Of a stretch of 64,000 nucleotides of DNA, positions 13,648 through 57,365 are shown in pieces (the first letter of the stretch is position 1; each line of letters begins with the position of its first letter). Source of the stretch: Candidatus Palauibacter scopulicola (lineage in GTDB: Bacteria > Gemmatimonadota > Gemmatimonadetes > Palauibacterales > Palauibacteraceae); NCBI RefSeq assembly GCF_947581915.1, contig NZ_CANPWG010000014.1, forward strand, positions 7,769 to 71,768, given 5' to 3'. The notes beneath the pieces were generated by a model. It searched no databases. It worked only from the letters and a program-made list of their open reading frames with translations, and was not told the DNA's origin. The translations under genes and the position numbers were made by a program.

Positions 13648-13700
13648 GGGCCGGGTCCAGGCCGGGTCCAGGGCCGGGTCCAGGCTGGGTCTAGGCTGGG
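13648..13700. repeat. about 5 tandem copies of an 11-12-bp unit (CCGGGTCCAGG / CTGGGTCTAGG) in the ppk1-phoU convergent intergenic region, overlapping the phoU stop codon
   Basis: Read directly: ccgggtccagg ccgggtccagg gccgggtccagg ctgggtctagg ctgggtccgg. Confidence 0.8.
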
Positions 13701-14359: not shown

Positions 14360-14372
14360 CCGCCGCGACCCG

Positions 14373-16899: not shown

Positions 16900-16908
16900 C
16901 CGGGCCTG

Positions 16909-19201: not shown

Positions 19202-19240
19202 CGAACGGGCTCCGTCACCGAACGGGCTCCGCCGCGCGTA

Positions 19241-33554: not shown

Positions 33555-33605
33555 CTATCCCTTCACTCTCTGGTTTTCGGTTCTCCGGAAGTCCGACGGT
33601 CCGCG

Positions 33606-34973
33606 CTAGAGGATCATCTCGAGGGGGTTCTCGAGCATCGCCTTGAAGGCGCCGAGGAACGCCGCGCCCGTGGCGCCGTCGATGACGCGGTGGTCGCAGG
33701 ACATGGTCACGCGCATGCGCTTGCGGACGACGACCTGGCCGTCCACCGCGACGGGCTTCTCGACCGTCTGGCCGATGGCGAGGATGCCGGCTTCCGGTGG
33801 GTTGATGATCGCCGTGAACTCGTCGATCTCGAACATGCCGAGGTTGCTGACGGAGAACGTCCCGCCCTGGTACTCCTCCGGCGCGAGCTTCCGCGCCCGC
33901 GCCCGGGCGATGAGGTCCCGCGCCTCGGCCGAGATCTGCCGCAGCCCCTTCCGGCCCGCATCGCGCAGCACCGGCGTGATCAAGCCTTCGTCGAGCGCCA
34001 CGGCGATGCCGAGGTGGACCGCGCCGTGGTAGCGGATCGCGTTCTCCTCCCACGACGCGTTGACCGCCGGGTGGCGATTCAGCGCCTCCGCCGTCGCCTT
34101 CAGGAGCAGATCCGTCACCCCGATCTTGCCGTCCGCGAAGCGCGCGTTGAGGTCCGCGCGCAGCTCGAGCGCGCGGCCCATGTCGACCTCGGTCGTGAGG
34201 AAGAAATGGGGGACGGGCCCGATCGACTGGCCGAGCCGGCGCGCGATCGCCTTCCGCATCTGGCTCGCCTCCTCGACGCGGTCTTCCAGCCCGGGAGGGA
34301 GCGGCGCGGGCGGGGGCTGGCCGGGGGCGGCCGGAGACGGCGTGGGCGCGGGGGCCGTGGGCGTGGGCCCCGGGACCGGCGCGACGCTTGGGGCGCCGCG
34401 GGCCAGCGCGGCCTCGATGTCGGCCTTGACGATCCGGCCGCCCGGCCCGGATCCGGCGAGGCCGGCCAGCGCGATCCCGCTCTCCGCGGCCATCCGCCGC
34501 GCGACGGGCGAGGCCTTGATGCGCCCCCCGGCCGCCGCGGCCGGGTCTCCGGGCGCCGCACCCGCCGCGACCTCGACCGGCGCTGCGGCTTCGGGCGCCG
34601 CGGGTTCCGGCGCCACGGGTTCCGCCACCGCGGCTTCCGCCGCCACGGCAGGCGCGGCGGGCTCGCCGGCGGGGCCTTCCGCCGCCCCGTCGCCGACCGC
34701 CGCCGCCTCGGCGAGCAGTTCGTCGATCGCCTCGTCCGGCTCCGCGATCACGCCGATGAGCGCGCCCACCGGCACCGTGGCGCCCTCCTGCACGACGATC
34801 TTGCGCAGCACGCCGCCGCCGAGCGCCTCGACATCCATGTTCGCCTTGTCGGTCTCGATCTCCGCGACGACATCGCCCTGCGCCACGGCATCGCCCTCGG
34901 CGACCTTCCACTCGATGAGCTTGCCCTCCTCCATCGTCGGGCTCAGCTGCGCCATCACGACTCTCGTTGGCAT
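33606..34973 (-). CDS. dihydrolipoamide acetyltransferase (E2) of the pyruvate dehydrogenase complex
   Basis: Lipoyl domain ...AEIETDKANMDVE.... Ala/Pro-rich linkers. Catalytic C-terminus ...MSCDHRVIDGATGAAFL.... Start at MPTRVVMAQ (34971-34973). Confidence 0.85.
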   Translation of the reverse strand: MPTRVVMAQLSPTMEEGKLIEWKVAEGDAVAQGDVVAEIETDKANMDVEALGGGVLRKIVVQEGATVPVGALIGVIAEPDEAIDELLAEAAAVGDGAAEGPAGEPAAPAVAAEAAVAEPVAPEPAAPEAAAPVEVAAGAAPGDPAAAAGGRIKASPVARRMAAESGIALAGLAGSGPGGRIVKADIEAALARGAPSVAPVPGPTPTAPAPTPSPAAPGQPPPAPLPPGLEDRVEEASQMRKAIARRLGQSIGPVPHFFLTTEVDMGRALELRADLNARFADGKIGVTDLLLKATAEALNRHPAVNASWEENAIRYHGAVHLGIAVALDEGLITPVLRDAGRKGLRQISAEARDLIARARARKLAPEEYQGGTFSVSNLGMFEIDEFTAIINPPEAGILAIGQTVEKPVAVDGQVVVRKRMRVTMSCDHRVIDGATGAAFLGAFKAMLENPLEMIL

Positions 34974-34993
34974 ATCGGTCGGCGTCCGGTCTG

Positions 34994-35977
34994 CTAGTCC
35001 GCGTAGCACACGTGGCGCACCGCCGCCGCCACGTGGTCCGCGTTGGGGGTTACGAGCTTCTCCAGGTTCTTCGCGTAGGGCATGGGCACGTCCAGCCCGT
35101 TCACGCGCGCCACCGGGGCGTCCAGCGAGTCGAACGCCTCGCGCTGGATGTCGTCCACGACCTGGGCTCCGATGTTGCACATCGGCCACCCCTCCTCCGC
35201 GACCACGGCCCGGTTCGTCTTCTTCACCGACGCCACGACCGCGTCCACGTCCAGCGGACGCACCGTGCGCAGGTCCAGCACCTCGACGTCGATCTCTTCC
35301 TTCTCCAGCGTGCGGGCCGCCGCGAGCGCCTGGTGTACCATCTTCGAGTGGCACACGACGGTCACGTCCGACCCCTCCCGCTTCACCTCGGCCTTGCCGA
35401 TCGGCGTCAGGTACTCCTCCTCCGGCACTTCATCCCGGACGAGGTTGTACATGATCTCGCTCTCGATGAAGACCACGGGGTCGTTGTCGCGGATCGCGCT
35501 CTTGAGGAGTCCCTTCGCGTCCTTCGCCGTGGCGGGCGCGATCACCTTCAGCCCGGGCACGTAGCTGTACCAGGGCTCCGGCGACTGCGAGTGCTGCGCC
35601 GCGAGCTGGAGCGCCGCACCGCCCGGTCCCCGGAAGACGATGGGGACGTTGTACTGTCCGCCCGACATCTGGAACATCTTCGCCGCCGCGTTCACGACCT
35701 CGTCGATCGCGAGCAGGGCGAAGTTCCACGTCATGAACTCGACGATCGGCCGCAGCCCCGCCATCGCCGCGCCCACGCCGAGCCCCGCGAACCCCAACTC
35801 GGCGATCGGAGCGTCCCGCACGCGCCACTCCCCGAACTGGTCGAGCAGGCCCTTCGTGACCTTGTAGGCGCCGTCGTACTCGCCCACCTCTTCGCCGATG
35901 ATGAAGGTCGAGTCGTCGCGCTCCATCTCTTCGCGGAGGGCGTCGTTCAGCGCTTCCCGATACGTGAGGACGGCCAT
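34994..35977 (-). CDS. pdhB: pyruvate dehydrogenase E1 beta subunit
   Basis: MAVLTYREALNDALREEMERD...GEEVGEYDGAYKVTKGL (transketolase-like pyrimidine-binding domain). The start shares one nt with the pdhA stop (TGATG). Confidence 0.85.
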   Translation of the reverse strand: MAVLTYREALNDALREEMERDDSTFIIGEEVGEYDGAYKVTKGLLDQFGEWRVRDAPIAELGFAGLGVGAAMAGLRPIVEFMTWNFALLAIDEVVNAAAKMFQMSGGQYNVPIVFRGPGGAALQLAAQHSQSPEPWYSYVPGLKVIAPATAKDAKGLLKSAIRDNDPVVFIESEIMYNLVRDEVPEEEYLTPIGKAEVKREGSDVTVVCHSKMVHQALAAARTLEKEEIDVEVLDLRTVRPLDVDAVVASVKKTNRAVVAEEGWPMCNIGAQVVDDIQREAFDSLDAPVARVNGLDVPMPYAKNLEKLVTPNADHVAAAVRHVCYAD

Positions 35978-37098
35978 CAGCGCAGCTCCTTCCGCCACGC
36001 GTCGCGTCGCCGCATGTCGTCCGGGTACCCGTCCGAATACACGTAGCGATAGAGCGCTTCCGAATCGGGGAAGGGGCTCCGGTCCGCAAACGCCGCGGAC
36101 TCCTCGGCGATCTCCTTCGCCTCGCGGTCGATCGCCTGGTACTCCTCCTCCGTCAGCCGCCCCGCGTCCATGAGCTTCCGGGTGAAGGAGAGGATCGGGT
36201 CATCCGACCGCCACTTCTCGACTTCCTCGCGCGTCCGGTACGTCCCGTGCATCGGGTCCGCCATCGAGTGGCCCATGTAGCGGAAGCAGCGCGCCTCGAT
36301 GAAGCTGGGCGTCTTCTCGTTCCGCCCCCGCTCGATCGCCTCCTCCATGGCCTGGCGGACGGCGAGCACATCCATGCCGTCCACGTCCAGCGAGGTGAGG
36401 CCCTCGTAGGCCCGGCCCCGGTCCTTGAGTTCCTTCACGGCCGCCACCCGCCGGTAGTCGGTCCCCATCCCGTAGCGGTTGTTCTCGAGAAGGAAGATGA
36501 CTGGCAGCTTCCAGCGCGCGGCCATGTTCAACGACTCGTGGAAGGCGCCGATGTTGACCACGGAGTCGCCGAAGAAGCAGAGGCAGACCTGGTCTCCGCC
36601 CCGGTAGCGGATCGCGTAGCCGACCCCGATCGCAAGCGGCAGGTGGCTCCCGACGATGCCGTGTCCGCCCATGAAGTTGAGCGACTTGTCGAACATGTGC
36701 ATCGAGCCGCCGAAGCCCTTCGAGCAGCCGTCCACGCGTCCGTAGAGTTCGGCCATGACGGCGTTCGGCGTCATGCCGCGCGCGATCGCCTGCGTGTGGT
36801 CGCGATACGCGGTGATCACGTAGTCGTCGTCCCGCAGCGGCGAAATCGACCCCGCCGAGACGGCCTCCTGCCCAATGTAGAGATGGCAGAAACCGCCGAT
36901 CTTGCCGACCTGGTAGACCTCCGCCGCTTTCTCCTCGAACCGGCGCTCGATGATCATCTCCCGCAGGAGTGCCACGCACTCCTCCTTCGAGAGTCCGAGG
37001 AACGCGTCGGGGTCTTCGCCCGATCCCCCGCCGGGGGCTCCCGCCGCCGGAGCGTCGGATACGGTGGCCGTGGACCGGCCGGGGTTCGCCGCGCTCAT
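35977..37098 (-). CDS. pdhA: pyruvate dehydrogenase E1 alpha subunit (TPP-binding)
   Basis: TPP motif GDSVVNIGAFHESLNMAARWKLPVIFLLENN (G-D-x25-30-N). The stop overlaps the lipA stop/start region by 4 nt. Confidence 0.85.
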   Translation of the reverse strand: MSAANPGRSTATVSDAPAAGAPGGGSGEDPDAFLGLSKEECVALLREMIIERRFEEKAAEVYQVGKIGGFCHLYIGQEAVSAGSISPLRDDDYVITAYRDHTQAIARGMTPNAVMAELYGRVDGCSKGFGGSMHMFDKSLNFMGGHGIVGSHLPLAIGVGYAIRYRGGDQVCLCFFGDSVVNIGAFHESLNMAARWKLPVIFLLENNRYGMGTDYRRVAAVKELKDRGRAYEGLTSLDVDGMDVLAVRQAMEEAIERGRNEKTPSFIEARCFRYMGHSMADPMHGTYRTREEVEKWRSDDPILSFTRKLMDAGRLTEEEYQAIDREAKEIAEESAAFADRSPFPDSEALYRYVYSDGYPDDMRRRDAWRKELR

Positions 37099-40646: not shown

Positions 40647-42815
40647 CTACCAGGTGGCGAGTTCCACGATCGCTTCGGCGATGTCGTCGACCTGCGGCAG
40701 AGACGCGTTCTCGAGCGAGGGCGCGTAGCCGATGAAGGTGTCCGTCGAGGTGACCCGGCGGATCGGCGCGTCGAGCCACTCGAACAGTTCGTCGGCCAGA
40801 CGGGCCGAGATCTCGGCCCCGTAGCCCCAGGACTTGGCGTCCTCGTAGGCCACGAGCACACGGTTCGTCTTCATCACGGAGCGGCGGATGGCGTCCATGT
40901 CGACCGGGTTCAGCGACCGCAGGTCGATGAGGTCCGCGCCCACCGGCTCTCCGGCGCGGTCCAGCTTCGCGAGCGCCTTGCGCGTGCGCTCCACCATTGC
41001 GCCGTAGGTGACGATCGTGAGATCGTCGCCCTCCGTGACGAGGGCGGCCTTGCCGAAGGGGATCATGTACTCGGGACCCGGATAGACGCCCTTGTTGTAC
41101 GTCTGCCGGTACAGGTGCTTGTGCTCGAGGAAGAGCACCGGATCGTCGCACCGGATCGCGGTCCGCAGGAGCCCGTTCGCGTCCACCGCGTTCGAGGGGC
41201 AGATCACGTGCATGCCGGGCGTGTGCGTGAAGAGCGAGGCGCCCGTCTGCGAATGGTACATCGCGCCGCCCGAGATGTAGCCCCCGTAGGTGGTCCGAAT
41301 GACGAGCGGGCACTTCCAGCGTCCCGCGGAGCGCCAGCGGAAGGTCGCGACCTCGTTCCGGAACTGGTGGTAGGCTGGCCAGATGTAGTCGAAGAACTGG
41401 ACCTCGGCGACCGGCTTCAGCCCGCGCACGGCGAGACCCACGGCGCGTCCGACGATGTTCGCCTCGGCGAGGGGCGCGTTGTACACCCGCAGCGACCCGA
41501 ACTCGCGCTGCAGGCCGTACGTCACCTTGAAGACGCCGCCCTTGCCCTTGACCTCATCGAGGATCTCCTCGCGGCTCGCGTCCGCCACGTCCTGCCCGAA
41601 CACCACGATCTGCGGATCGCGCCGCATCTCGTCGCGGAGGCAGGCGTTGAGCAGGTCGACCATCGTCTTCGGATTCCCCTCGGGGTCGGGCCGTGCCTCC
41701 GTCTCGAAGGCGTTCGACGCGGGGTCGACGTCGGGCGAGTACACGTGCGTGTAGACGGTTGCCGGGTCCGGTTGCGGGCGGGCCATGGCGCGGTCCGCCG
41801 CGTCGGCGACTTCGGCCCTGATCTCCGCCTTGAGCGATTCGAGTGCGCCGGCCTCGATCACGCCTTCCCGAACGAGGTAGTCGGCGAAGGTGGCGAGCGG
41901 GTCGCGCTCGGATTCGACTTCCCGTTCGCTTTCGGACTTGTAGAGCCGCTCATCGTCGGACATCGAGTGGCTGTAGGGCCGGGTGACATGTGCGTGAACG
42001 AGCGCCGGACCGTGGCCGGACCGCACGTATCGCGCGGCGCGCCGCATGACGACGTAGCTCTCGAGCGGGTCCGTCCCGTCGACCTCCTCGATGTGGAGGT
42101 TCGGGTAGTTCCGCACGAGACTCGAGATGCTGCCCCCCGCCGTGTTGACCTCGACGGGCACGGAGATCGCGTAGCCGTTGTCCTCCACGAGGAAGAGGAT
42201 GGGAAGCTGCAGGTTGGAGGCGGTGTTGAGCGCCTCCCAGAACTCTCCTTCCGAGGTCGTGCCGTCCCCCGTGCACACGAGCACGATCTCATCCGCTTCC
42301 ACGTTGGGGGCGACCGCATCGAGTCCGTCGAGGCCGGCGGCCCGGGCGCGGGCGATGCCCTCCGCGCACCCCACTGCCTGGTTGAACTGCGTGCCCGTCG
42401 GGCTCGAAGGCGTGACGAGGTGCAGGTCAGGAGAACCGAAGTGCGCCGGCATCTGCCGTCCGCCGGTCGATGGATCCTCCTCCGCGCCGACCGCGCCGAG
42501 GAACATCTCGTACGGAGTCATGCCGAGTTCGAGACAGAGCGCGCGGTCGCGGTAGTAGGTGAAGAACCAGTCGTGGCCTGCTCTGAGGGCGCGTCCCGCC
42601 GCGACGAGGAGCGCTTCGTGCCCGGCGCCGGAGATCTGGAAGAAGATGCGGTTCTGCCGCTTCATCGCGATTTCGCGGTCGTCGATCGTCCTCGACGTGT
42701 ACATCGTGCGATACATCGCGAGGAGGTCCTCGGCCTGGAGATCCCGCCATTCGGGGCGGGCCAGGGCGCTGAGCGCGCGCTCCAGATCGTCGGTCTGGTC
42801 GATAGGGGTTGCCAT
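40647..42815 (-). CDS. fused alpha/beta E1 component of a TPP-dependent 2-oxoacid dehydrogenase (branched-chain/acetoin-type)
   Basis: N-terminal half resembles E1 alpha (TPP motif [36 protein letters not shown]); C-terminal half resembles E1 beta (transketolase pyrimidine and C-terminal domains). Start at MATPIDQ (42813-42815). Confidence 0.8.
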
Positions 42816-42959
42816 GTATGTCCAGCTGATCAGGAAGAGATTCGAGTGCCGGGTCTCCGGGCTCCGGAGACTCGCCACGACTCCGCCTTCGCCTTCCGCA
42901 ACCGCCCCGCCCGAACCGCGACGAAGACCCGGCGGGGAATCTAATCGTCCCTCCCCGGT

Positions 42960-46556: not shown

Positions 46557-47278
46557 GCGGGCCGCACCGGTCGCTCGTGATCGTGGCCGGCGGGCGTTCT
46601 CGCCGACTCGGCCGCGACAAGCCGCTGGTCGAGATCGGCGGCCGTACCGTGCTGTCACGGATCCTGGAAGCCACGTCGCAGTTCAAGGACACCGTCCTGG
46701 CGGTGCGCGAAGTTCCGCCCTTCCGGCGCGCGCTCGCCGGGGAAGGCTGGGAGTCCGTCGCCGAAACCGCGGGCCCGCCCGGCTCGGCCACGTTCCGCAG
46801 CCCGGAGGGCCGCGGTCTCCTTGTTGTGCCCGACCCGGTACCCGACCTGGGTCCCCTCGCCGGCTTCGCCTCGGGGCTGGACGCGGCACGGGGCGCGATC
46901 TGCGTTGTGCTGGCGGGCGACCTCCCCTTCGTCACGCCGGATCTCGTCGACCGCCTGAGCGGCGAACTCGCGAGCGATGCGGAGGCGGACGCCGTCGTGC
47001 CGAACGCGCGCGGCCGGGCTCAGCCCCTGTGCGCCGCCTATCGGCGGGAGGTCGGCCGGCTGGCCGCCCGGCTCGTGGCGCGCGCCGCCGCGTCCGGCGC
47101 CCCGTCCCCCTCGATGATGGGCTTCCTCGAGCGGTTGCGAGTGCGAACCGTCACGGCCGAACAGACCGCCGGCATCGGCGATCTCGAGACGATGGTGCGC
47201 GGCGTGGACAGCCGGGCCGACCTCGAGTGGGCCGTGCGGCGCGCCGCCCGATCCGACCAGGCCGGGACACGACGCTAG
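46553..47278 (+). CDS. mobA: molybdenum cofactor guanylyltransferase MobA
   Basis: LVIVAGGRSRRLGRDKPLVEIGG (MobA nucleotide-binding signature). The GTG start overlaps the arsC stop (GTGA). Confidence 0.75.
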   Translation: MSGPHRSLVIVAGGRSRRLGRDKPLVEIGGRTVLSRILEATSQFKDTVLAVREVPPFRRALAGEGWESVAETAGPPGSATFRSPEGRGLLVVPDPVPDLGPLAGFASGLDAARGAICVVLAGDLPFVTPDLVDRLSGELASDAEADAVVPNARGRAQPLCAAYRREVGRLAARLVARAAASGAPSPSMMGFLERLRVRTVTAEQTAGIGDLETMVRGVDSRADLEWAVRRAARSDQAGTRR

Positions 47279-48486
47279 AACCCGGCCGCCACCTCTCCGA
47301 GGGCGGCGACCGCGTCGTCCAGTTGCCGGTCGCTGAGGTAGGGGGCCGGGCCCAGCCGCAGCAGGTCGTCGCGGTAGTCCGTCGCCACGCCGCGAGCCGC
47401 GAGCGCCTCGTGGAAGTCGCGTGCCCGCGGCGTCCGGAGCGCGAGGAAGCCGCCCACCGCATCGGGCGGCGTCTCCCGGTCGCGGTCCACGAGTGCCGGG
47501 TCCGCGTCGAGCCCGTCGAACCCTCGCGTGAGACGGTCCATCTGGTGCCGGCTCACCGCACGCAGGAACTCCGGCGCGAGTCCCCGCTCCCGGAAGAAGT
47601 CGAACACCTCGGCGGCGCGGTAGTGGCTCGTCGGATCGTACGTGCTGCCCGCGAACCGTTCCGCTCCCGCTCCGTACGGCACCCGCGCGGCGTCCTCCGC
47701 CCCGTGCAGCGCCGAGAACTCGGCGAACCAACCCGTGACGGCGGGGCGCAGCCGGCAGTCCGGAGGTACGCGCAGGAAGCAGTTCCCCTCGCCGAGCTGG
47801 CAGTACTTGTACCCGCCCCCCACCACGAACGCGCCTTCGAGCCCCAGCTTCGAGAGATCGAAGGGGATCGCGTTCAGCGCGTGATAGGCGTCCACGAGCA
47901 GGTGGCACCCCACCTGTTCGCAGCGGTCCGCAACGCGGTCCAGCCCGCCGACGATACGGGCGTCACGGAAGAGGACGGCGGAAACGAGCACGCCCGCCGT
48001 CTCGTCGTCCGTGGCGAGACCGAGTCGCTCGGAGAGCGAGTCGATCGGGTCCACGGGCACGCGGACGATGGCCAGCCCCTCCTCCTCCAGGCGGTCGAGC
48101 TGGCGCCGGATGGAGTGGAACTCCCCCGCCGTCGTCACGATCCGGGGCCGCGCGCGCAGGTCGAGGGCGGAGAGAAAGCGCACCACGAGTTCGTGCGTGT
48201 TGGAGCCCAGCGCGACGTCCCCTTCGTCGGGGCGCCCCGGGCGTCCGAGGAGTTCGGCGTACCCGGCGCGGACCCGGTTCCCGCGGGCGAACGCCTCCTC
48301 CCACTTCCCGTCCACCAGGCGGGCGGCGTCTTCCCATGCCCGGAGCTGTCCCGCGAAGCCGCAGTCGGGCCACGCCTGGTGCGAATGGCCCGTGAGAAGC
48401 AGCCGCTCCGCGACCCGGAAGCGGGAGTAGTACGGGGCGAGCGCGTTCGGCTCCCGGTACAGGTCCTCCGGCGCGAAACGCGTCAC
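47275..48486 (-). CDS. kynU: kynureninase (PLP-dependent)
   Basis: NALAPYYSRF...LTGHSHQAWPD and VGGGYKYCQLGEGNCFLRV (PLP-lysine region) match kynureninase. Its stop shares CTAG with the mobA stop on the opposite strand. Confidence 0.8.
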   Translation of the reverse strand: MTRFAPEDLYREPNALAPYYSRFRVAERLLLTGHSHQAWPDCGFAGQLRAWEDAARLVDGKWEEAFARGNRVRAGYAELLGRPGRPDEGDVALGSNTHELVVRFLSALDLRARPRIVTTAGEFHSIRRQLDRLEEEGLAIVRVPVDPIDSLSERLGLATDDETAGVLVSAVLFRDARIVGGLDRVADRCEQVGCHLLVDAYHALNAIPFDLSKLGLEGAFVVGGGYKYCQLGEGNCFLRVPPDCRLRPAVTGWFAEFSALHGAEDAARVPYGAGAERFAGSTYDPTSHYRAAEVFDFFRERGLAPEFLRAVSRHQMDRLTRGFDGLDADPALVDRDRETPPDAVGGFLALRTPRARDFHEALAARGVATDYRDDLLRLGPAPYLSDRQLDDAVAALGEVAAGF

Positions 48487-48496
48487 GGGAAGCTCG

Positions 48497-49300
48497 TCAC
48501 AGGTCGGTGCGGATCGCCCACAGGTCGGGAAACACGGGGCGGTTCAGCGACTTCCTGAGGTAGGCGGCGCCCCCCGTCTGGCCGGTCCCGGGCCGCGCTC
48601 CGATCGTGCGCTCCACCATCTTCACATGCCGGTAGCGCCATTCCTGGAGGCCCTCGTCGAGATCCACGAACCGCTCGCACAGCTGGACGAGTTGCGGATC
48701 CTCCCGGTACAGCCGGATGAGCGCGTCCCGCACGCCCGCGGACGGCTCGGTCGGTGCCGTGACGTCCCGCTCCAGGTCCTCCGCCGGGATCGCGTACCCG
48801 TGCGCGTGGAGGAACCGGAGGAAGGCGGCCCACAGCGACGGTTCCGCGTAGCGGGCGTCGAGCCGCCGGCGCGCGTCGCTTCCTTCCGGATATCGATCGA
48901 AGACGTTCGTCCGCTTGTGGCCGAGGATGAATTCGAGCTCGCGGAACTGGTACGACTGCAGGCCGCTCGCCTCCTCCAGCCGTTGCCGAAAGGCGAGGAA
49001 CTCCAGCGGTCGCATCGTCTCCAGGATGTCCAGCTGGGCGACCTGCACCTTCAGGATCGTGAGGATGCGCTGCATCGTGTGCAGGAGCCGCGGCATGTCG
49101 TCGGCACCCATCCGGTCGCGCGCGAACTCGAGTTCGTGCAGAAGCTGCTTGAACCACAGCTCGTACACCTGGTGGATGATGATGAACAGCATCTCATCGT
49201 GCTCGGGGCTCCCGCCCTCGCCCGACTGCTCCTCCTGGAGAGACAGCAGCTCGTCGAGGTGCAGGTATCCGGCATAGGTCAGGTATTTTCCGTGCGCCAT
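48497..49300 (-). CDS. kynA: tryptophan 2,3-dioxygenase
   Basis: MAHGKYLTYAGYLHLDELLSLQ...HDEMLFIIIHQVYELWFKQ...WRYRHVKMVERTIG (bacterial TDO signature including the haem-ligand His region). Start ATG 49298-49300 preceded by GGAGGGAG. Confidence 0.85.
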   Translation of the reverse strand: MAHGKYLTYAGYLHLDELLSLQEEQSGEGGSPEHDEMLFIIIHQVYELWFKQLLHELEFARDRMGADDMPRLLHTMQRILTILKVQVAQLDILETMRPLEFLAFRQRLEEASGLQSYQFRELEFILGHKRTNVFDRYPEGSDARRRLDARYAEPSLWAAFLRFLHAHGYAIPAEDLERDVTAPTEPSAGVRDALIRLYREDPQLVQLCERFVDLDEGLQEWRYRHVKMVERTIGARPGTGQTGGAAYLRKSLNRPVFPDLWAIRTDL

Positions 49301-49344
49301 CGATCTCCCTCCGGCGGCCCGCGTGCGGTGCCCGGGACGCGACC

Positions 49345-51666
49345 CTAGTACCCCCACTCGAATCTCGGCGTGTAGCCGTCCAGCGACGAATACTGCGGCG
49401 GCCACGGGATCGGCGCCCCCGAAGCATAGGCGGCGTGCCGGGTCCAGTATGGGTCCCAGAGGTGGGCACGGGCGAGACAGCAGAGGTCCGCGCGGCCCGC
49501 CGCGAGGATCGTGTTCACGTCCATGAACGAGGAGATGTTGCCCACGGCCATGGTCGCGATCCCCACTTCGTGCCGGATGCGATCCGAGAAGGGGGTCTGG
49601 TACTGGCGGCCGTAGACCGGCTCCTGCCAGGGGACGGTCTGTCCCGCCGAGACATCGATGATGTCCACGCCCGCCTCCTTCAGGCGGTGCGCGACCTCGA
49701 CGGCCCCGTCCGCGGTCATCCCGCCCTCCGCCCAGTCCACGGCGGAGATCCGGACCGAGATCGGCTTCTCGGGCGGCCACGCGGATCGCACCGCCGCGAG
49801 GACCTCGAGCGGGAAACGAAGCCGCCCGTCCACGTCTCCTCCGTACTCGTCCTCACGGAGGTTCGTGAGAGGGGAGATGAAGCTGGCCAGCAGGTAGCCG
49901 TGCGCGAAGTGGATCTCCAGCAGGTCGAACCCGGCCTCCTCCGACATTTTCGCTGCGCGGCGGAACTCGGCGGTCACCCGATCCATGTCCCGCCGCGTCA
50001 TCTCGCGCGGCACCGGGCTGTGTTCGAACCAGGGCACGGGGGAGGCGGCCATGATCGGCCAGCCGCCCTCATCGAGAGGTTCGTTGTCGCCCTCCCAGGA
50101 CAGGTGGGTGGACGCCTTCCGGCCCGCGTGGCCGAGCTGCAGCCCGATCGCCGCGTCCGAATGGCGGTGCACGAAGTCGACAATCCGCTTCCAGGCGCCC
50201 ACATGCACGGGAGCGTACATTCCCGTGCAGCCCAACGAGATGCGGCCCTCCCGGCTCACGTCCGTCATCTCCGACATCACGAGTCCGGCTCCCCCGATCG
50301 CCCGGCTGCCCAGATTCACGAGGTGCCAGTCGTCCGGCGTCCCGCCCTCCGCGGAGTACTGGCACATGGCCGAGACGACGACCCGGTTCTTCAGTTCAAG
50401 CTCCCGGAGCCGGAATGGGGCGAGGAGGGGGGGAGGGGCCGGGCCGCGCCCGACGCCCGCGGGGGGAGCGCCTGCGGTCGCCGCCGCTGTGTCGGCCGCC
50501 ACTGCGTCCGCCGCCGCCCGCTCCGCGAACCAGCGGTCGACGCGCGCGGTGAACTCCGGGTCGCGCAGGGCGAGGTTGGAGTGGGTGATGCGGAGGCTGC
50601 GCGTGATGAGGTTGAAGGCGAACTGCAGGGGTTCCGTCTCCAGGAAACGCTCGGTGCCCTCGAACCATTCGAGACTCGCCTGCGCCGCCCTCTGCGCGCT
50701 CTCGACCTCCGGCCGGCGGGCCGTCTCGTAGGCCTCCAGCGCGGGCGCCACATCGAGATCGTGGGCGAGCAGCGACTCGTGAAGGGAAATCGCGTCGATC
50801 ATCGCCAGCCGGGTGCCGGACCCGATGGAGAAGTGGGCCGAGTGCGCGGCGTCGCCGACGAGCACGATGTGGCCGTGGCGCCACGATCGGTTCCGGACGG
50901 TCGGGAAGCCCCGCCAGATCGAGCGGTTCGCGACGAGGCGATGGGAATCGAGTTCCTCACGAAACGTGTCCTCGAGGAAAGCGACGGTCTCCTCCTCGGA
51001 GGCGGCGTCCATCCCGGCGGCGCGCCACGTCGCCTCGGTCGCCTCGACGATGAAGGTGGAGACGGGATCGCCGCCGACGCTGTCGGGCCTGTACTGATAC
51101 GCGTGTACGCGCCACAGGCCGTGTTCGGTCTCCCGGAAATGGAAGGTGAAGGCGGGGAAGGGCTTCGTCGTGCCGAGCCACACGAACCGGTTCGGACGGA
51201 GATCGACGAGGGGGCCGAAGGCGGCGGCGTATCGGTCCCGCATGCGGCTGTTCACTCCATCGGCGGCGAGCACGAGATCGGCGCCGGCGTACGCTTCCTC
51301 CGACTCGACTTCCACGCCGCACTGAAGATCGACGCCGAGTTCGCGCGCCCGCGACTCCAGGATCTCGAGGAGGGCGGTGCGGGCGAGGCCGCTGAACCCG
51401 TGTCCGGTCGACGTGAGCCGGTGGCCCAGGTAGTGGATGTCGATGTCGTCCCAGTGGTGGAAGGACCGCACGATCGCCTCGTAACTGTCGCGGTCCGCGG
51501 CGGCGAGTTCCTCCAGCGTGGCGTCGGAGAACACGACGCCGAAGCCGTAGGTGTCGCCGGGGCGGTTGCGTTCGAGGACGATGACATCGTGCGCCGGATC
51601 CGCGCGCTTCATCAGGATCGCGAAGTACAGGCCGGCCGGCCCGCCTCCGACGCAGACGATCCTCAG
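49345..51666 (-). CDS. two-domain flavoenzyme: N-terminal FAD-dependent aromatic monooxygenase fused to C-terminal Old-Yellow-Enzyme-like FMN reductase. It resembles 2-aminobenzoyl-CoA monooxygenase/reductase (ACMR), the family databases often label bifunctional salicylyl-CoA 5-hydroxylase/oxidoreductase.
   Basis: N-domain: [27 protein letters not shown]-domain: MCQYSAEGG...[25 protein letters not shown] (OYE). About 773 aa. The first 278 codons of the track ORF 49345..52497 overlap the ACAD gene out of frame and are rejected. Confidence 0.8.
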
Positions 51667-52823
51667 AGGTCGCTCTCGCCGCGCGCGGCGTCGAGCAGAT
51701 GACGCGCGATGATGAGACGCTGGATCTCGGTGGCGCCCTCGTAGATGCGGAGCGCTCTCACGGAGCGGTAGAGCCGGTCGACCGGGTGGTCCGCCAGTAC
51801 GCCGCGTCCGCCGAGGATCTGCACGGCGTCGTCCACCACGCCCTGCGCGATCTCGGTCGCGAAGGACTTTGCCATGGCGGCTTCGAGGTCGGTGCGGTCC
51901 GCGCCGCCGTCGCGCTCCCAGGCCGCTCGATACACGAGGAGCCGGGCGGCGGTCAGGTCGGTGCCCATCCGTCCCACCTTCTCCTGCGTGATCTGGAAAT
52001 CGGCGAGCGCCCGTCCGAACTGCCGGCGCGAGAGGGCGTGGTGGAGCGCTTCGTGCAGCGCGCGGCCCGCCATTCCGCAGGCCGCGGCGCCGACGGTGGG
52101 GCGCAGGCGATCGAGCGTGGCGAGCCCGAGCTTGTACCCTTCGCCCTCGCCTCCGACGCGGGCCGCGGCCGGAAGCCGGCAGTCTTCGAGCGCGATCTCG
52201 CCCAGCGGGTGGGGGTCGGCCATCACGAGCGGCCGCACGAAGCGGAATCCCTTCGTGTCGGCGGGGAGGAGGAAGGCGGAGATCCCGGCAACCCCCTCGG
52301 CCGGGTCGGTGACCGCGAACAGGAGATAGAAGTCCGCGATCCCCGCGTTCGAGATGAAGGTCTTCACGCCGTTGAGGACGTAGTCGTTCCCGTCGCGGAC
52401 GGCGGTCGAGCGCATGGCGGCCACGTCGGACCCCGCCTCCGGCTCGCTCATCGCGAAGGCCGCCACGGCTCGCCCGCGGATGGCGCGGTCGAGCCACAGG
52501 CGGCGCTGCCTCTCGTCGCCGGCCAGCGCGATGGGGGTCGAGCCCAGCGCCTGGAGGGCGAACATCGCGTCCGCGAGCGGTGAGTAGAAAGCCAGCGTCT
52601 CCCGCGTCACGGAACAGGCCCGGAAGTCCTGTCGGCCGATCGCCTTCAGCCAGCCGCCTCGCCCCAGGGATGCGCAGATCTCCCGCGCGTAGCGGCGGGC
52701 GAGATCATCATCGTCCCGATGCGCGTGTTCCGCGAACTCCGACGCCGCGTAGCGCCCGAGCCCCTCCCCGAGTTCGAGGTGCCGCGGTTCGAGAAAGGCG
52801 CGGACGGGATGGAGGTCGATCAC
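51663..52823 (-). CDS. acyl-CoA dehydrogenase
   Basis: The ACAD fold is conserved throughout (…[20 protein letters not shown]…, C-terminal …[14 protein letters not shown]…). GTG start at 52821-52823 overlaps the enoyl-CoA hydratase stop (GTGA), giving 386 aa. Confidence 0.85.
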
Positions 52824-53620
52824 GAGAACACCGCGGCCCGCTTCTCGACGAAGGCGCGGAAGCCCTCGCGGAAGTTCGGGTCCTCCATGCAGGCGGCCTG
52901 CAGGCGGGCCTCTTCGGCGAGCGCGTCGACCAACGTCATGTGTGCCTCCCTCTCCAGAGCGCGCTTGGTGACGGACAGCGCGGAGGTGGGTCCCGCCGCC
53001 AGCCGCGCCGCCCACTCCGTCCCCGCGGCGAGCGCCTCGCCATCGGGGACGACCCGATTGTACAGTCCGATACGGAGCGCCTCCCGTGCGTCGAGGAAAT
53101 CGCCCGTCATCAGAAGCTCCGTCGCACGCCCGAGACCGATGATTCGCGGCAGGAGCCAAGCGATCCCCATGTCGGCGCCGGAGAGCCCGACCCGCGTGAA
53201 CAGGTAGGCGATCTTCGCGGATTCGGTCGCGATCCGCACGTCGCAGGCGGTCGCGATCACGGCCCCGGCCCCCGCCACCGTGCCGTTCAGGGCGCCGACG
53301 ATGGGCCTCTCGCACTCCTTCATGGCGACGATCAGGTCACACGTCATCCGCGTGAATTCGAGCAATTCCGGGGCGTCCATCTCGAGGAGCGGCCCGATGA
53401 TGTCGCGCACATCCCCGCCCGTGCAGAAGGCGGCCCCGGCCCCCGTGATCACGACCGCACGGATCCCCGGTTCGCGGTCGAGCGCGCGGAAGGTGTTTCG
53501 GAGTTCGTCGTAGACCTCGAAGGTCAGCGCATTGCGCCGTTCCGGACGGTTCAGCGTGATCGTCGCGACGGATGTCGCCGCGTCGACCTCGTACAGGAAT
53601 GAACTCGGATTCAGAGGCAC
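52820..53620 (-). CDS. enoyl-CoA hydratase/isomerase-family protein
   Basis: ITLNRPERRNAL...AFCTGGDV...GAGAVIATACDVRIA (crotonase fold). GTG start 53618-53620 preceded by GGAAGGAAG. Confidence 0.8.
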   Translation of the reverse strand: MPLNPSSFLYEVDAATSVATITLNRPERRNALTFEVYDELRNTFRALDREPGIRAVVITGAGAAFCTGGDVRDIIGPLLEMDAPELLEFTRMTCDLIVAMKECERPIVGALNGTVAGAGAVIATACDVRIATESAKIAYLFTRVGLSGADMGIAWLLPRIIGLGRATELLMTGDFLDAREALRIGLYNRVVPDGEALAAGTEWAARLAAGPTSALSVTKRALEREAHMTLVDALAEEARLQAACMEDPNFREGFRAFVEKRAAVFS

Positions 53621-53651
53621 GGCGCGCTTCCTTCCCGGCGGTGGTGCGGGG

Positions 53652-54059
53652 TCACGGCAGGACGGCGGTCGCTTCGATCTCGACCTGCGCGCCGGCATCG
53701 ACGAGCCCGCTGACCTCGACGAGCGCCATGGCGGGATAGTGCCGGCCCAACCGGGCGCGCCACGCGGTCCCAAGCTCCGAACGGGCGTCCCGGTAGGCGG
53801 CGAGATCCGTCACGTAGATGGTCATCCGTCCGATGTGCGAGGGCTCTCCGCCCGCCGCCCGCACCACCGCCAGCACGCGGTCGAGCGCGAGCGCGAACTG
53901 CGCGGCGAAGTCCGAAGTCTCGACGTGTCCGTCCGATCCGGTCGCGGTCTGCCCGGCCACGAACAGTACGCGCCCGCCGGAGGGGGCGAGGAGGCCGTGA
54001 TTCCAGCCCCGCGGCTCGCCCAGCGCGGCCGGGTTCAGAACCTCGAACACATCGGTCAC
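53652..54059 (-). CDS. RidA (YjgF/TdcF/L-PSP) family enamine/imine deaminase
   Basis: 135 aa with the family pattern ...RVLFVAGQTA...GRMTIYVTDLAAY...PAMALVEVSGLVDAGAQVEIEA. GTG start overlaps the upstream SDR stop (GTGA). Confidence 0.75.
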   Translation of the reverse strand: MTDVFEVLNPAALGEPRGWNHGLLAPSGGRVLFVAGQTATGSDGHVETSDFAAQFALALDRVLAVVRAAGGEPSHIGRMTIYVTDLAAYRDARSELGTAWRARLGRHYPAMALVEVSGLVDAGAQVEIEATAVLP

Positions 54060-54838
54060 GGGAGAGCCGCCGTGGCGCCGCCGTCCAGCACGACGGTCTG
54101 ACCGTTGATGCTCCGCGCTTCGTCTTCGCACAGGAACGCAATCGATGCCGCGACCTCCCCGGGGGCGATGAGTCGCCGCTGCGGCGTCGTCGCAAGGATC
54201 GCCTCGACGGCGTCCGTCTCCGCCATCTCCGTTCGCTTCACGATGTTCTCGATCGTGGCGTCCGTCATCGGCGTGTCGACGTAGCCGGGACAGACCGCGT
54301 TCACCGTGACCCCGGCTCCCGCTACCTCGGCCGCGGCGGAGCGCGTGAGTCCGAGCAGGGCGTGTTTCGATGCGGCGTAGGCGGCGATGTAGCGCGCCCC
54401 GCGCAGCGCGGCGACGGAGGCCACGTTCACGATCCGGCCCCAGCCGCGTTCCAGCATGCCGGGCAGCACGCCCTGCATTGCGAGAAGCGCGCCGGTCGCG
54501 TTGATGCGCCACAGCCGCTCCCACTCCTCCGGGGCGAGCTTCACGACGGCCGCGGAACTGGCCACGCCGGCATTGTTCACGAGGATGTCCACGGCGCCGA
54601 GCCGCTGCTCGGCCTCGCGGCACAGGTCCTCCACGTTCGCCGGATCCGACACGTCGCACGTCATCGCCCACGCCTCGCCTCCACCGTCCCGCAGCTCGGC
54701 CGCGACAGCCTCGATCTCCGGCGTGCTCCGCGCCGCCAGCACCAGCCGGACGCCTCGATCCGCCAGCGTCCGTGCCGTCGCGGCCCCGATGCCGCGCCCC
54801 CCGCCCGTGACAAGCGCGCCACGTCCGGCAAGACTCAC
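54056..54838 (-). CDS. SDR-family 3-hydroxyacyl-CoA dehydrogenase / 3-oxoacyl reductase-like protein
   Basis: ALVTGGGRGIGAA, NNAG, catalytic S...YAASKHAL. The start overlaps the creatininase-family gene stop (ATGA). Confidence 0.8.
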   Translation of the reverse strand: MSLAGRGALVTGGGRGIGAATARTLADRGVRLVLAARSTPEIEAVAAELRDGGGEAWAMTCDVSDPANVEDLCREAEQRLGAVDILVNNAGVASSAAVVKLAPEEWERLWRINATGALLAMQGVLPGMLERGWGRIVNVASVAALRGARYIAAYAASKHALLGLTRSAAAEVAGAGVTVNAVCPGYVDTPMTDATIENIVKRTEMAETDAVEAILATTPQRRLIAPGEVAASIAFLCEDEARSINGQTVVLDGGATAALP

Positions 54839-55623
54839 TTCTTTTCCTCTCCCAGGGCTTCCCTCACTTCCTCTCCCAGGGCTTCCCTCACTGCCTCGGC
54901 GAGGATCTCGCCGAGCGTCTCAATGGTAGCACGTCCCTCTTCCGCCGTCGCCTGTGACGGATAGCCGAAATACGCCCGCGTCCCCCCCGCCTCCGCGAAA
55001 TCTCCCAGCCCGGCCCGGATCGCGGCGGAGAGGGAGACGGGATTGTCGTCCAGTCCGCGCATGATCTCCTCGCGCACGCGGCCGGGATCGCGGGCGAGGA
55101 GGATCGAGCCCTCGTACCGCCCGGCGTGGCAGGCCCCGCTCCGGAACTCCTCGGTGAGCCGGCTCCCCCACGGCCGGCGCGTCAGATCGGGAAACACGAC
55201 GCGAATGGAATCCCCCCCGCCGACCGCCGCCGCCGCGGCGTGAAGCGCCTCGAGGTTGGCGGGGTCGAAGTGGGCGTTCGCGATCGCCAGGGTGGCGATC
55301 CCGGCCCGGCGCAGGCTGGCGGCGATGTCGACGAGGAGGGCGGTGAACGTCGCGGCCCCGATATCGATCGTGCCGGGAAACCTCGCGGAGAACGCGGCGG
55401 GCGTGTACGGGAGGCCGTCGAGGAGCACGATCTCCAGACCCGCGGCCGAGAGTCGCCGCGCGCCGGCTTCCGCCATCGCTTCCGCGATGGTGACGTCGGT
55501 GTCGAGCGGCAGGTGGGGGCCGTGCGCTTCGGTCGCTCCCACGGGCAGGATCGCCACCGTTCGATCGAGGTCGAGGGCCCCGACTTCCTCCCAGGTGAGG
55601 TCCGAAAGCCTGTTCACAGTCAT
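54835..55623 (-). CDS. creatininase-family metal-dependent amidohydrolase (creatininase / MftE / ArfB-formamidase family)
   Basis: ILPVGATEAHGPHLPLDTD (binuclear-metal His/Asp ligands of the family) and ...AIANAHFDP.... First gene of the minus-strand catabolic operon. The C-terminus carries a tandem EVREALGE duplication. Confidence 0.7.
   Translation of the reverse strand: MTVNRLSDLTWEEVGALDLDRTVAILPVGATEAHGPHLPLDTDVTIAEAMAEAGARRLSAAGLEIVLLDGLPYTPAAFSARFPGTIDIGAATFTALLVDIAASLRRAGIATLAIANAHFDPANLEALHAAAAAVGGGDSIRVVFPDLTRRPWGSRLTEEFRSGACHAGRYEGSILLARDPGRVREEIMRGLDDNPVSLSAAIRAGLGDFAEAGGTRAYFGYPSQATAEEGRATIETLGEILAEAVREALGEEVREALGEEKK
54846..54893. repeat. 24-bp perfect tandem duplication (TCCTCTCCCAGGGCTTCCCTCACT x2) inside the 3' end of the creatininase-family gene, duplicating the octapeptide EVREALGE
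   Basis: Read directly. Confidence 0.8.
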
Positions 55624-55751
55624 GGAGTCTCGCTACGCCGTGCCGGGGAGGGGCGCAAGTCCGGGCGGCTCGTGTCGGTTGTAGACCCGCCGGGCCGCGC
55701 ATACCGTGCGAACCTCAGCCAGGACCGGACGACCCCCGCCGACGGAGCCCG

Positions 55752-57365
55752 ATGCGAGACGCCGCGCCGCAGCCGATCTTCGATCCGCCCGAGCGCTTCA
55801 ACATCGCCGAGTACTTCCTGGGCGACCGCATTCGGGAAGGGCGGGGCGGCCGCCGCGCGCTGCTCACGGACGGCGGCGAGGTCACCTACGCGGAAGTCGA
55901 CGCGCTGGCGAACCGCTACGGCCACCTCCTGCGCAGCGCGGGCGTGCGGCCGGAGGAGCGGGTTCTCATCGCGCTCCCGGACGGACCGGACTTCGTCGGC
56001 GCCCTCTTCGGCACGCTGCGGATCGGCGCCGTGGGCGTCATGCTGAACCCGTTTCTCCGGCGCGACGAGATTTCCTACTTCTTTCGGTACACGCGCGGCG
56101 CCGTCCTTCTCGTGGATTCGGGCCGCGCGCCCTTCTTCCGCGAGGGGATCTCCGCGGCGCCGGCATCCGCGGCGGCTCATGAAGCCGGCATCCCCTGGGA
56201 CGAGACGCCCTCCGCTCCGCGCGAGACCTTCGTCGTGGACGAGCCGGCCTTTGCGGAACGGCTTCGCGCCCAGCCCGCGACGCTGGAACCCTGCCCGACC
56301 CACCGGGACGATGCCGCCCTCTGGCTGTTCAGCGGGGGAACGACAGGACGCCCGAAGGGCGTCGTGCAGACGCACGCCTCGTTCGCGAACACGACGGAGA
56401 GCTACGGCAAGCGGGTGCTGGGCCTCACGGAAGACGACATCACCCTCTCCGTCCCCAAGCTGTTCTTCGGCTACGCCACAGGGTCCAACCTCTTCTTCCC
56501 CTTCGCGGTCGGTGCGACCGCAGCCCTCTTCCCGGAGCGCTGCACTCCGGACGTCCTGTTCGAGAGGATCGCACGATTCCGCCCCACGGTGCTCGTCAAC
56601 GTCCCCACCATGATCCGGCACATGGTGGCGCACCCGGACGCCGCCGCCAGCGATCTGTCGAGCCTTCGTCTCGCGACCTCGGCGGGTGAGGCGCTCCCGC
56701 CCGAACTTCACCGGCGCTGGCGCGACCGCTGGGGGGTGACGCTCCTGGACGGCCTGGGGACCGCGGAGATGTGGCACATCTTCCTCAGCAACCGTCCGGA
56801 CGAGGTACATCCGGGAACGCTGGGGCGTGCGGTCCCCGGTTTCGAGGTGCGGGTCTGCGACGACGAGGGCCGCGAGCTGCCGGACGGTGAAGTGGGTTGG
56901 CTGTGGGTGCGCGGAGGATCGCGCGCGCTGGGGTACTGGCAGCGGGCCGGGGCGACGGCGGAGGCCTTCCGGGGGGAATGGTACGTGTCGGGCGACATGA
57001 TCGTCCGCGATGAACGCGGGGTGTTCCGCTACTGCGGTCGTGGCGACGACATGCTCAAGGTCAAGGGAAAGTGGCTCTCCCCCGGGGAGGTGGAGGATTG
57101 TCTGCTGCAACACCCCGCCGTCGCGGAGGCGGCCGTCGTCGGCGTGCCGACTCCCGAGGGTCTTCTGGAGCCGGTCGCCTGGATCGTTCCGACGAAACCG
57201 GCTGCCGCAAGAGTCGGCGAGCTGGCGCCGGAACTCAGGGAATTCGTCGGTTCGCGGCTGTCCTCGTACAAGACGCCGGCCGCCGTTCACGTCGCGGCGG
57301 ATCTGCCCCGGACGCACCTCGGAAAGGTCGACCGCGCCGCACTCCGCGATCGATCCCGGACCTGA
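55752..57365 (+). CDS. aryl-carboxylate-CoA ligase of the benzoate/2-aminobenzoate-CoA ligase clade (AMP-binding superfamily)
   Basis: AMP-binding motif SGGTTGRPKGV. N-terminal FNIAEYFL typical of benzoate-CoA ligases. ...GDMIVRDERGVFRYCGRGDDMLKVKGKWLSP... (A8/A10). Divergent from the catabolic operon. Confidence 0.8.
   Translation: MRDAAPQPIFDPPERFNIAEYFLGDRIREGRGGRRALLTDGGEVTYAEVDALANRYGHLLRSAGVRPEERVLIALPDGPDFVGALFGTLRIGAVGVMLNPFLRRDEISYFFRYTRGAVLLVDSGRAPFFREGISAAPASAAAHEAGIPWDETPSAPRETFVVDEPAFAERLRAQPATLEPCPTHRDDAALWLFSGGTTGRPKGVVQTHASFANTTESYGKRVLGLTEDDITLSVPKLFFGYATGSNLFFPFAVGATAALFPERCTPDVLFERIARFRPTVLVNVPTMIRHMVAHPDAAASDLSSLRLATSAGEALPPELHRRWRDRWGVTLLDGLGTAEMWHIFLSNRPDEVHPGTLGRAVPGFEVRVCDDEGRELPDGEVGWLWVRGGSRALGYWQRAGATAEAFRGEWYVSGDMIVRDERGVFRYCGRGDDMLKVKGKWLSPGEVEDCLLQHPAVAEAAVVGVPTPEGLLEPVAWIVPTKPAAARVGELAPELREFVGSRLSSYKTPAAVHVAADLPRTHLGKVDRAALRDRSRT

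Follow-up and report, generated by a model that had tools for sequence, protein, structure and literature searches.

A Gemmatimonadota operon that probably couples upper kynurenine and abm-type 2-aminobenzoyl-CoA pathways

Candidatus Palauibacter scopulicola carries a nine-gene cluster in which genes for a tryptophan 2,3-dioxygenase (TDO, KynA) and a kynureninase-like enzyme directly follow a gene resembling that of 2-aminobenzoyl-coenzyme A (CoA) monooxygenase/reductase (ACMR). The cluster lies in a 64,000-nucleotide (nt) stretch of contig NZ_CANPWG010000014.1 (positions 7,769 to 71,768), hereafter the window, to which coordinates refer unless another locus is named. This arrangement raises the question as to whether a single operon takes tryptophan through anthranilate and into CoA esters. 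We put the probability at about 0.7 that it does: an operon ancient in Gemmatimonadota would connect upper kynurenine metabolism with an abm-type 2-aminobenzoyl-CoA pathway, with substrates and reactions predicted from sequence.

A nine-gene locus with an abm-type core

The gene set was taken from an open reading frame listing with inspection of start codons, and families were assigned from Pfam and NCBIfam scans. The features, with protein lengths in amino acids (aa), are as follows.

54835-55623, minus strand: creatininase-family gene, first gene of the predicted operon; 262 aa; Pfam Creatininase, 173 bits
54056-54838, minus strand: short-chain dehydrogenase/reductase (SDR) gene; 260 aa; adh_short, 208 bits; TIGR01963, 248 bits, under cutoff
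53652-54059, minus strand: Rid/L-PSP family gene; 135 aa; Ribonuc_L-PSP, 64 bits; TIGR00004, 41.3 bits against a cutoff of 106.25
52820-53620, minus strand: crotonase (enoyl-CoA hydratase) family gene of the PRK08258 type; 266 aa; NF006107, 360 bits against a cutoff of 330
51663-52823, minus strand: acyl-CoA dehydrogenase (ACAD) gene; 386 aa; C-terminal, middle and N-terminal Acyl-CoA_dh domains matched
49345-51666, minus strand: gene for an ACMR-like fusion of a flavin adenine dinucleotide (FAD) monooxygenase to an Old Yellow Enzyme; 773 aa; FAD_binding_3 and Oxidored_FMN; NF006101, 1090.5 bits against a cutoff of 1078
48497-49300, minus strand: TDO (KynA) gene; 267 aa; Pfam Trp_dioxygenase, 209.8 bits
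47275-48486, minus strand: gene for a kynureninase-like pyridoxal phosphate (PLP) enzyme; 403 aa; KYNU_C only, 31.9 bits
55752-57365, plus strand (divergent): gene for a benzoate-CoA-ligase-family ligase; 537 aa; TIGR02262, 483 bits against a cutoff of 375
55624-55751: divergent intergenic region, 128 bp, presumed to be the promoter and control region of both the ligase gene and the operon

All nine genes named in an initial annotation of the window were recovered at or very near their predicted positions, and their family identities held. That annotation had also described the eight minus-strand genes as chained throughout by 4-nt start/stop overlaps. Such overlaps occur at four of the seven junctions (creatininase-like/SDR, as GTGA; SDR/Rid; crotonase/ACAD; ACAD/fusion, as CTGA), and gaps separate the genes at the remaining three, with 31 nt between Rid and crotonase, 44 nt between fusion and TDO, the largest spacing among the eight genes, and 10 nt between TDO and the kynureninase-like gene. 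A scan for consensus sigma-70 promoters and terminators and an Rfam search gave no match within the cluster. We count the tight spacing and the lack of a terminator-like site inside the cluster in favor of a one-operon structure; a single transcript of all eight genes would start in the 128-bp divergent region. That region gave no consensus sigma-70 match, and its inverted repeats are weak. The ~45 nt before the creatininase-like ATG (55624-55670) are conserved in four Palauibacter loci (the window and L090 to L092) as cTTGCGCc-N17-TAGCGA-gactcc-ATG. This ATG has no Shine-Dalgarno sequence, and the conserved 45-nt block is a possible promoter of a near-leaderless transcript. At the other end, the kynureninase-like gene and a convergent MobA-like NTP-transferase gene share a palindromic CTAG (47275-47278), in which their TAG stops overlap on both strands, leaving no space for a terminator.

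Conservation also supports a functional unit. Species-representative genomes were scanned with an alignment of fusion homologs, the closest 80 loci were kept, and the nine window proteins were searched against these by tblastn. The full nine-gene layout was found in at least 18 Gemmatimonadota loci (Palauibacter-like, Gemmatimonadales and Longimicrobiales), at 55 to 88% identity and with the genes diverging in parallel, and seven further contigs, reached through other proteins, keep the same order; the arrangement thus recurs far beyond chance. Soil and freshwater Gemmatimonadales carry the same operon. Throughout the phylum, the core is consistently followed at its 3' end by the TDO and kynureninase-like genes. 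Beyond this lineage, among the same 80 loci, the fusion gene is usually accompanied by Rid, crotonase, ACAD and ligase genes and often by an SDR gene. The creatininase-like, TDO and kynureninase-like genes are never beside it there, except that two Acidobacteria loci (L023 and L025) keep the creatininase-like gene. The kyn-less core recurs in Alpha- and Betaproteobacteria, Chloroflexota and others, and on annotated Ralstonia megaplasmids. A neighbor-joining tree of the 80 fusion homologs places the window in a Gemmatimonadota/Acidobacteria clade and does not separate functional types.

Several relatives depart from this layout. In L022 (12421-14864), L029 (~13858-14775) and L017 (13062-13907), unrelated membrane-protein genes stand between fusion and kynA or between kynA and kynU, so that the kyn module is separable from the core. 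A loose second example of proximity between kyn genes and an ACMR-like gene is found in a metagenome-assembled genome of Rhodospirillales (L037; 3461-5671 and 10001-12256), in which canonical kynA and kynU lie 4 to 6 kb from the ACMR-like gene, separated from it by a TetR regulator and an ATP-binding cassette (ABC) exporter. In two Gemmatimonadales loci (L083, 579-1394; L085, 236-1060), a Phenol_MetA_deg outer-membrane channel gene, absent from the window, lies right behind the ligase gene, a hint of aromatic substrate uptake. A plasmid homolog in Gemmatirosa kalamazoonensis does not lie in such an operon, so that no cultured carrier emerged.

Once the creatininase-like, TDO and kynureninase-like genes are subtracted, the core is the widespread abm-type 2-aminobenzoyl-CoA cluster. 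The Azoarcus (Aromatoleum) evansii abm cluster for aerobic metabolism of 2-aminobenzoate, described by Schuhle et al. in 2001, reportedly has the same composition as the core found here, and a published summary of that cluster agrees (PMC4539516). Like the A. evansii, Ralstonia and Cupriavidus abm clusters, the window combines an ACMR-type fusion with an adjacent aryl-CoA ligase, crotonase, ACAD and Rid/YjgF genes, with CoA esters as the intermediates; crotonase, ACAD, a dehydrogenase and YjgF/Rid are all co-clustered here. An annotated Ralstonia megaplasmid carries fusion, MarR, crotonase, ACAD, ligase, thioesterase and Rid genes. Unlike such clusters, the window has no MarR-type regulator and no ABC solute-binding protein, either in the cluster or in its flanking genes, and no thioesterase in the cluster, while its operon has a built-in creatininase-family gene, TDO and kynureninase. 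Its fusion is only ~52% identical to proteobacterial and actinobacterial homologs. Its ligase is of the benzoate-CoA-ligase family rather than the AbmG type and is only 33% identical to the ligase of the Ralstonia cluster, as it is to that of the Arthrobacter cluster.

A second type of cluster, that of Arthrobacter sp. Rue61a plasmid pAL1 and of Streptomyces sdg (salicylyl-CoA 5-hydroxylase), shares the homologous fusion (52%), an aryl-CoA ligase and a Rid gene. On pAL1, these stand with FAH-family, cupin and thioesterase genes, and the ligase is a verified anthranilate-CoA ligase. Anthraniloyl-CoA and downstream CoA esters have been detected in anthranilate-grown Arthrobacter cells (PMC3534580). 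The thioesterase, cupin and FAH-family genes suggest that a hydroxylated aromatic acid is released and then cleaved by an oxygenolytic reaction. The window cluster has crotonase, ACAD and SDR genes instead, and no genes for a thioesterase, a cupin (gentisate-type) dioxygenase or a FAH/maleylpyruvate-type hydrolase. It clearly belongs to the crotonase/ACAD type.

The two genes at the 3' end recall the kynA-kynB-kynU pathway of Pseudomonas, Bacillus, Cupriavidus and Streptomyces coelicolor, in which TDO and kynureninase-family genes are likewise adjacent and the product is anthranilate. The window differs in that no cyclase-type KynB was found among its Pfam-scanned genes, in that its kynureninase is of a divergent subfamily, and in that its kyn genes are joined to anthranilate consumption, not to a regulator or to antABC and catechol.

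A proposed route from tryptophan to ring-opened CoA esters

Taken together, the gene families suggest the following route. TDO would oxidize L-tryptophan to N-formylkynurenine; the formyl group would then be removed, the creatininase-family metallo-amidohydrolase being the best candidate for this step, and the divergent kynureninase would cut kynurenine into anthranilate and alanine. The divergently transcribed ligase would form 2-aminobenzoyl-CoA, which the fusion would hydroxylate and reduce to 2-amino-5-oxocyclohex-1-ene-1-carbonyl-CoA; the model for this step is the reaction of A. evansii ACMR, which is established biochemistry. The Rid protein would hydrolyze the enamine or imine, giving ammonia and dioxocyclohexane-carbonyl-CoA, and the crotonase would open or isomerize the ring without oxygen. 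The SDR and ACAD would take the product towards central metabolites, together with housekeeping thiolases. The same logic, from TDO and kynureninase through anthranilate and its CoA ester to ACMR-type dearomatization, had been put forward in the initial annotation, and it gains support from the abm-type core and the fixed position of the kyn genes. The description of the route as non-oxygenolytic can apply to ring opening alone, since O2 is consumed both by TDO and by the fusion's monooxygenase half.

ACMR is a single polypeptide of ~85 to 87 kDa, whose N-terminal part is an aromatic monooxygenase with FAD and whose C-terminal part is an Old Yellow Enzyme reductase that carries flavin mononucleotide. 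The fusion protein has this two-domain architecture, as judged from its match to NF006101 and from the Pfam domain positions, with FAD_binding_3 at residues 4 to 325 and Oxidored_FMN at residues 414 to 746 of 773. Homologs from Arthrobacter pAL1, Ralstonia and Streptantibioticus served as stand-ins for A. evansii AbmA and Streptomyces SdgC in our comparisons; those from the pAL1 and Ralstonia clusters share ~52% identity with the fusion. We infer that it is an ACMR-like 2-aminobenzoyl-CoA monooxygenase/reductase.

The start of the fusion gene is unusual. Its frame contains no ATG, GTG or TTG between 52497 and 51612, and a start at 51612 would lose the GGGPAG FAD motif, so that a full-length protein needs CTG or another non-canonical start. 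The probable start is a CTG that overlaps the ACAD stop as CTGA. CTG also occupies the homologous position in two other Palauibacter loci (L090, ~12985-13000; L091, ~12990-13000), and more distant relatives always have ATG, GTG or TTG there. Public gene calls of close relatives are mostly short at the N terminus (750 aa, starting MKRS...).

TDO is a member of its family by Pfam and matches TIGR03036 at E=8e-82 (274.5 bits), under the equivalog cutoff of 390.7; GGAGGGAG precedes its ATG. The last gene of the operon is harder to place. Its product matches KYNU_C at 31.9 bits (cutoff, 27), its best NCBIfam matches are cysteine desulfurases (~20 bits), and single-sequence phmmer against the PDB returned cysteine desulfurases only, near E=1e-3. 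That assignment was overturned by profile and fold searches. A profile of 31 homologs matches Pseudomonas fluorescens kynureninase 1QZ9 over its full length at E=9e-16, ten orders better than any desulfurase, and an AlphaFold (AF2) model (pLDDT 82.5) has 1QZ9 as its top Foldseek match (TM 0.75). The two proteins are 25% identical. Their alignment is in register at the YKY Schiff-base motif, the D-x-x-H motif with the PLP-binding Asp and His, GWF, and the carboxylate-binding R-x-G-x-x-P; we take the aligned equivalents to be Lys227, Tyr226, Asp201, Trp256 and Arg375 of 1QZ9. By these profile, residue and model comparisons, the protein is a divergent kynureninase-family PLP enzyme. The kynU named in the initial annotation is thus a kynureninase relative and not a routine one, as no NCBIfam kynureninase model recognizes it.

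This divergence leaves room for a related PLP hydrolase with another substrate, either 3-hydroxykynurenine or N-formylkynurenine; in the latter case N-formylanthranilate would be produced and then deformylated by the creatininase-like amidase. A distinct subfamily (KYNU_C 32 bits, against 113 bits for the canonical KynU of Rhodospirillales L037) and low identity to 1QZ9, combined with the missing formamidase, would allow such a reversed order of the two steps. We think this quite unlikely: the catalytic residues of kynureninase are retained, as are those that bind the carboxylate, the gene invariably adjoins the TDO gene in the loci examined, and the cluster has no kynurenine 3-monooxygenase or 3-hydroxyanthranilate dioxygenase gene.

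Downstream of the fusion step, the Rid protein and the crotonase both lack residues that define the best-known members of their families, and these losses are common to all phyla with abm-type clusters. Arg105 binds the substrate carboxylate in archetypal RidA. The position that we take to be Arg105 is Met in 49 of 53 cluster-linked homologs, and the window protein, with its sub-cutoff TIGR00004 score, is not an archetypal RidA. Such a replacement is reasonable with a CoA-thioester substrate, and we infer that Rid acts as an enamine/imine deaminase on 2-amino-5-oxocyclohex-1-ene-1-carbonyl-CoA. A Rid gene stands beside the fusion in all annotated clusters examined (Ralstonia and Arthrobacter), and Rid and ligase genes do so in Streptantibioticus, an unannotated record searched with the window's own proteins. 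A C7H8O4 compound, a cyclohexanedione-carboxyl-CoA-like ester, was found only in anthranilate-grown Arthrobacter (PMC3534580), which fits a deamination at this point of the route.

The case of the crotonase is similar. Both catalytic glutamates of enoyl-CoA hydratase are missing: the positions presumably equivalent to E144 and E164 of the rat enzyme are V/I and F in all 51 cluster-linked homologs, all of which share an Asp in G(A/C)DMG. In place of the enoyl-CoA hydratase of the initial annotation, we propose a ring-opening hydrolase or isomerase. No function has been assigned to the nearest structure, 3G64. The ACAD carries a YEG catalytic-base motif, and its best NCBIfam matches, all under cutoff, are acryloyl-CoA, cyclohexane-1-carbonyl-CoA and glutaryl-CoA dehydrogenases. 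The SDR is most like 3-hydroxybutyrate dehydrogenase and is proposed to interconvert oxo and hydroxy groups on an alicyclic or ring-opened CoA ester.

Ligase, candidate formamidase and competing explanations

Several observations weigh against the joined pathway. The fusion clears the NF006101 cutoff narrowly, and the model is named for salicylyl-CoA 5-hydroxylase. The nearest structures to the ligase are benzoate-CoA ligases 4EAT and 2V7B (393 bits), and its 33% identity to the Arthrobacter protein is to a verified anthranilate-CoA ligase. No NCBIfam kynureninase model matches the last protein of the operon at E<=1e-3, and no thiolase or regulator was found among the scanned window genes. With a crotonase that lacks the hydratase residues, "beta-oxidation-like," as the lower steps had been called, is loose at best, and the Rid and crotonase positions rest on reference sequences and numbering that we presume to be correct. 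The creatininase-like gene also follows the kyn module imperfectly. It is kept in four operons without adjacent kynA/kynU (L023, L025, L028 and L049) and absent from L026, which has both, so that 18 loci are concordant and 5 discordant in a comparison that is itself confounded by phylogeny, and proteobacterial abm clusters do without this gene.

The structures nearest to the ligase also include the anthranilate-CoA ligase AuaEII (4WV3), at 366 bits. The gene is kept beside the operon in Gemmatimonadota and Acidobacteria at 56 to 84% identity, and its distance from the Ralstonia and Arthrobacter cluster ligases indicates that another ligase lineage was taken up into the Gemmatimonadota/Acidobacteria cluster. 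In A. evansii and T. aromatica, 2-aminobenzoate is among the substrates that benzoate-CoA ligases accept (PMC8388817). An anthranilate (2-aminobenzoate)-CoA ligase is a plausible assignment, based on genomic context.

The name of NF006101 and the benzoate-type relatives of the ligase would suit a cluster that degrades salicylate or another 2-substituted benzoate, with TDO and kynureninase as mere neighbors. We regard this as very improbable, because the thioesterase, cupin/gentisate dioxygenase and FAH-type hydrolase genes seen on pAL1 are missing, the cluster conserves a deaminase-type gene of the Rid family, and kynA and kynU keep a fixed position after the fusion gene, at spacings of 44 and 10 nt, and have diverged along with it throughout the phylum. 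The AuaEII score raises a further alternative, an anabolic operon that supplies anthraniloyl-CoA for a quinolone- or aurachin-like metabolite, as with PqsA and AuaEII, and some Palauibacter species take their names from the production of polyketides. This is harder still to credit. No ketosynthase, polyketide synthase or nonribosomal peptide synthetase gene lies in or near the cluster; the ring-dearomatizing fusion, ACAD, crotonase and Rid are degradative; and soil and freshwater Gemmatimonadales share the operon.

Within the joined kynurenine and 2-aminobenzoyl-CoA pathway, removal of the formyl group is the least certain step. The product of TDO is N-formylkynurenine, and known formamidases are absent; cyclase-type KynB (PF04199) was found neither among the Pfam-scanned window genes nor in the loci of annotated relatives. 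This makes the creatininase-like protein the obvious candidate. The creatininase family includes an aryl-formamide hydrolase, archaeal ArfB. The window protein shares the fold family, binuclear metal site and catalytic His of characterized PF02633 members (creatininase, MftE, ArfB and IolN), its metal ligands and catalytic His aligning with those of P. putida creatininase; where creatininase has the motif NGHYEN, it reads NAHFDP. It differs from them in scoring under every curated equivalog cutoff (MftE, 108 against 172 bits; creatininase TIGR04448, 80.5 against 235; IolN, 34 against 245) and in standing in an aromatic CoA pathway, a context not described for characterized members. It is thus not a creatininase sensu stricto (EC 3.5.2.10), and of its curated relatives, MftE, which cleaves amides, is the closest. 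When plasmids were searched with this protein by tblastn, only MftE-like genes at ~34% identity came up. Of the 19 informative kynA-positive Gemmatimonadota loci, 18 carry the gene. Our literature search found no paper tying the creatininase family to kynurenine formamidase. On these sequence relationships, we tentatively assign the conversion of N-formylkynurenine to kynurenine to this protein, at slightly less than even odds. The 3' end of its gene (54844-54897) contains a 24-nt tandem duplication (2.2 copies, 96% match), which gives the C-terminal repeat VREALGEE-VREALGEE.

The discordant loci are what would be expected if the pathway were the same and the creatininase-like protein were instead a lower-pathway C-C or C-N hydrolase of an alicyclic dioxo/amino CoA ester, or an entry amidase for other N-acyl-anthranilates, N-formylkynurenine being deformylated by an enzyme encoded elsewhere or unspecifically. 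The position of the gene, beside the ligase and at the end of the operon opposite kynA/kynU, would fit such a role, and the family does include a ring-opening C-C hydrolase, IolN, whose model matches weakly (E=1e-8). Against this, abm-type clusters of Proteobacteria, Chloroflexota and Actinomycetota have no creatininase-like gene, so that the lower pathway does not generally depend on one; the best curated relatives (MftE and creatininase) are amide hydrolases, as is ArfB, which acts on aryl-formamides; and neither the operon nor the window offers another formamidase candidate. We consider this alternative unlikely, though not strongly so. The formamidase assignment is one part of a bolder proposal, in which the creatininase-like protein would be a third, non-orthologous kynurenine/aryl formamidase, Rid the lower-pathway deaminase and the crotonase the non-oxygenolytic ring opener; that all three hold jointly is doubtful.

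Chromosomal setting and biological meaning

Candidatus Palauibacter (Gemmatimonadota) has the nearest homologs of the fusion, which are 94% identical to it. The cluster had been called a catabolic island, a label that we reject: GC content is ~70% throughout the window with no compositional break at the cluster, and the neighborhood matches gene for gene in three other Palauibacter genomes. The locus is a stable chromosomal one. Its surroundings are housekeeping in character, with pst/phoU/phoRB and ppk/ppx genes, a 2-oxoacid dehydrogenase complex, NAD synthase and TonB-dependent receptors. The phosphate-regulon block (9372-19936) comprises genes for Ppx/GppA, polyphosphate kinase, PhoU, pstB/pstA/pstC/pstS-like components, a histidine kinase and a response regulator, and precedes a TonB-dependent receptor gene. 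The window contains two 2-oxoacid dehydrogenase systems: a 770-aa single-chain E1 with E1_dh and transketolase domains (40647-42959) and, a few kb away, a split E1alpha/E1beta-E2-E3-lipoate ligase set (31366-37098).

The initial annotation knew of no described operon that links kynA and kynU to an ACMR-type gene. Our literature search likewise found no paper describing kynA/kynU within an abm-type operon, and no mention of the trait was found in Palauibacterales/Gemmatimonadota genomics papers and ecogenomic surveys. The route itself is already known in outline: tryptophan degradation via anthraniloyl-CoA monooxygenase/reductase was omitted from GapMind for lack of knowledge (PMC9007349), and Cupriavidus reconstructions link kyn genes through abmG to abm genes (PMC8879955). 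What looks new is the operon fusion, together with the benzoate-CoA-ligase-type ligase, the creatininase-family formamidase candidate, the crotonase without its glutamates and the Rid protein without Arg105.

These features bear on a gap in the biochemistry, as the operon would be a minimal gene set for the conversion of tryptophan to ring-opened CoA esters, offering candidates for deamination (Rid), for ring opening (crotonase) and, with the creatininase-like protein, for a new family of formamidases. To our knowledge, the steps that follow 2-aminobenzoyl-CoA monooxygenase/reductase have not been settled since the pathway was discovered in A. evansii. Should the enzymes prove ordinary, the locus would be a tidy operon variant of a known route; should the three assignments hold jointly, it would be a complete one-operon blueprint for tryptophan mineralization through CoA esters. 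The pathway would also assign a capacity for aromatic amino acid catabolism to marine and soil Gemmatimonadota, most of which are uncultured.

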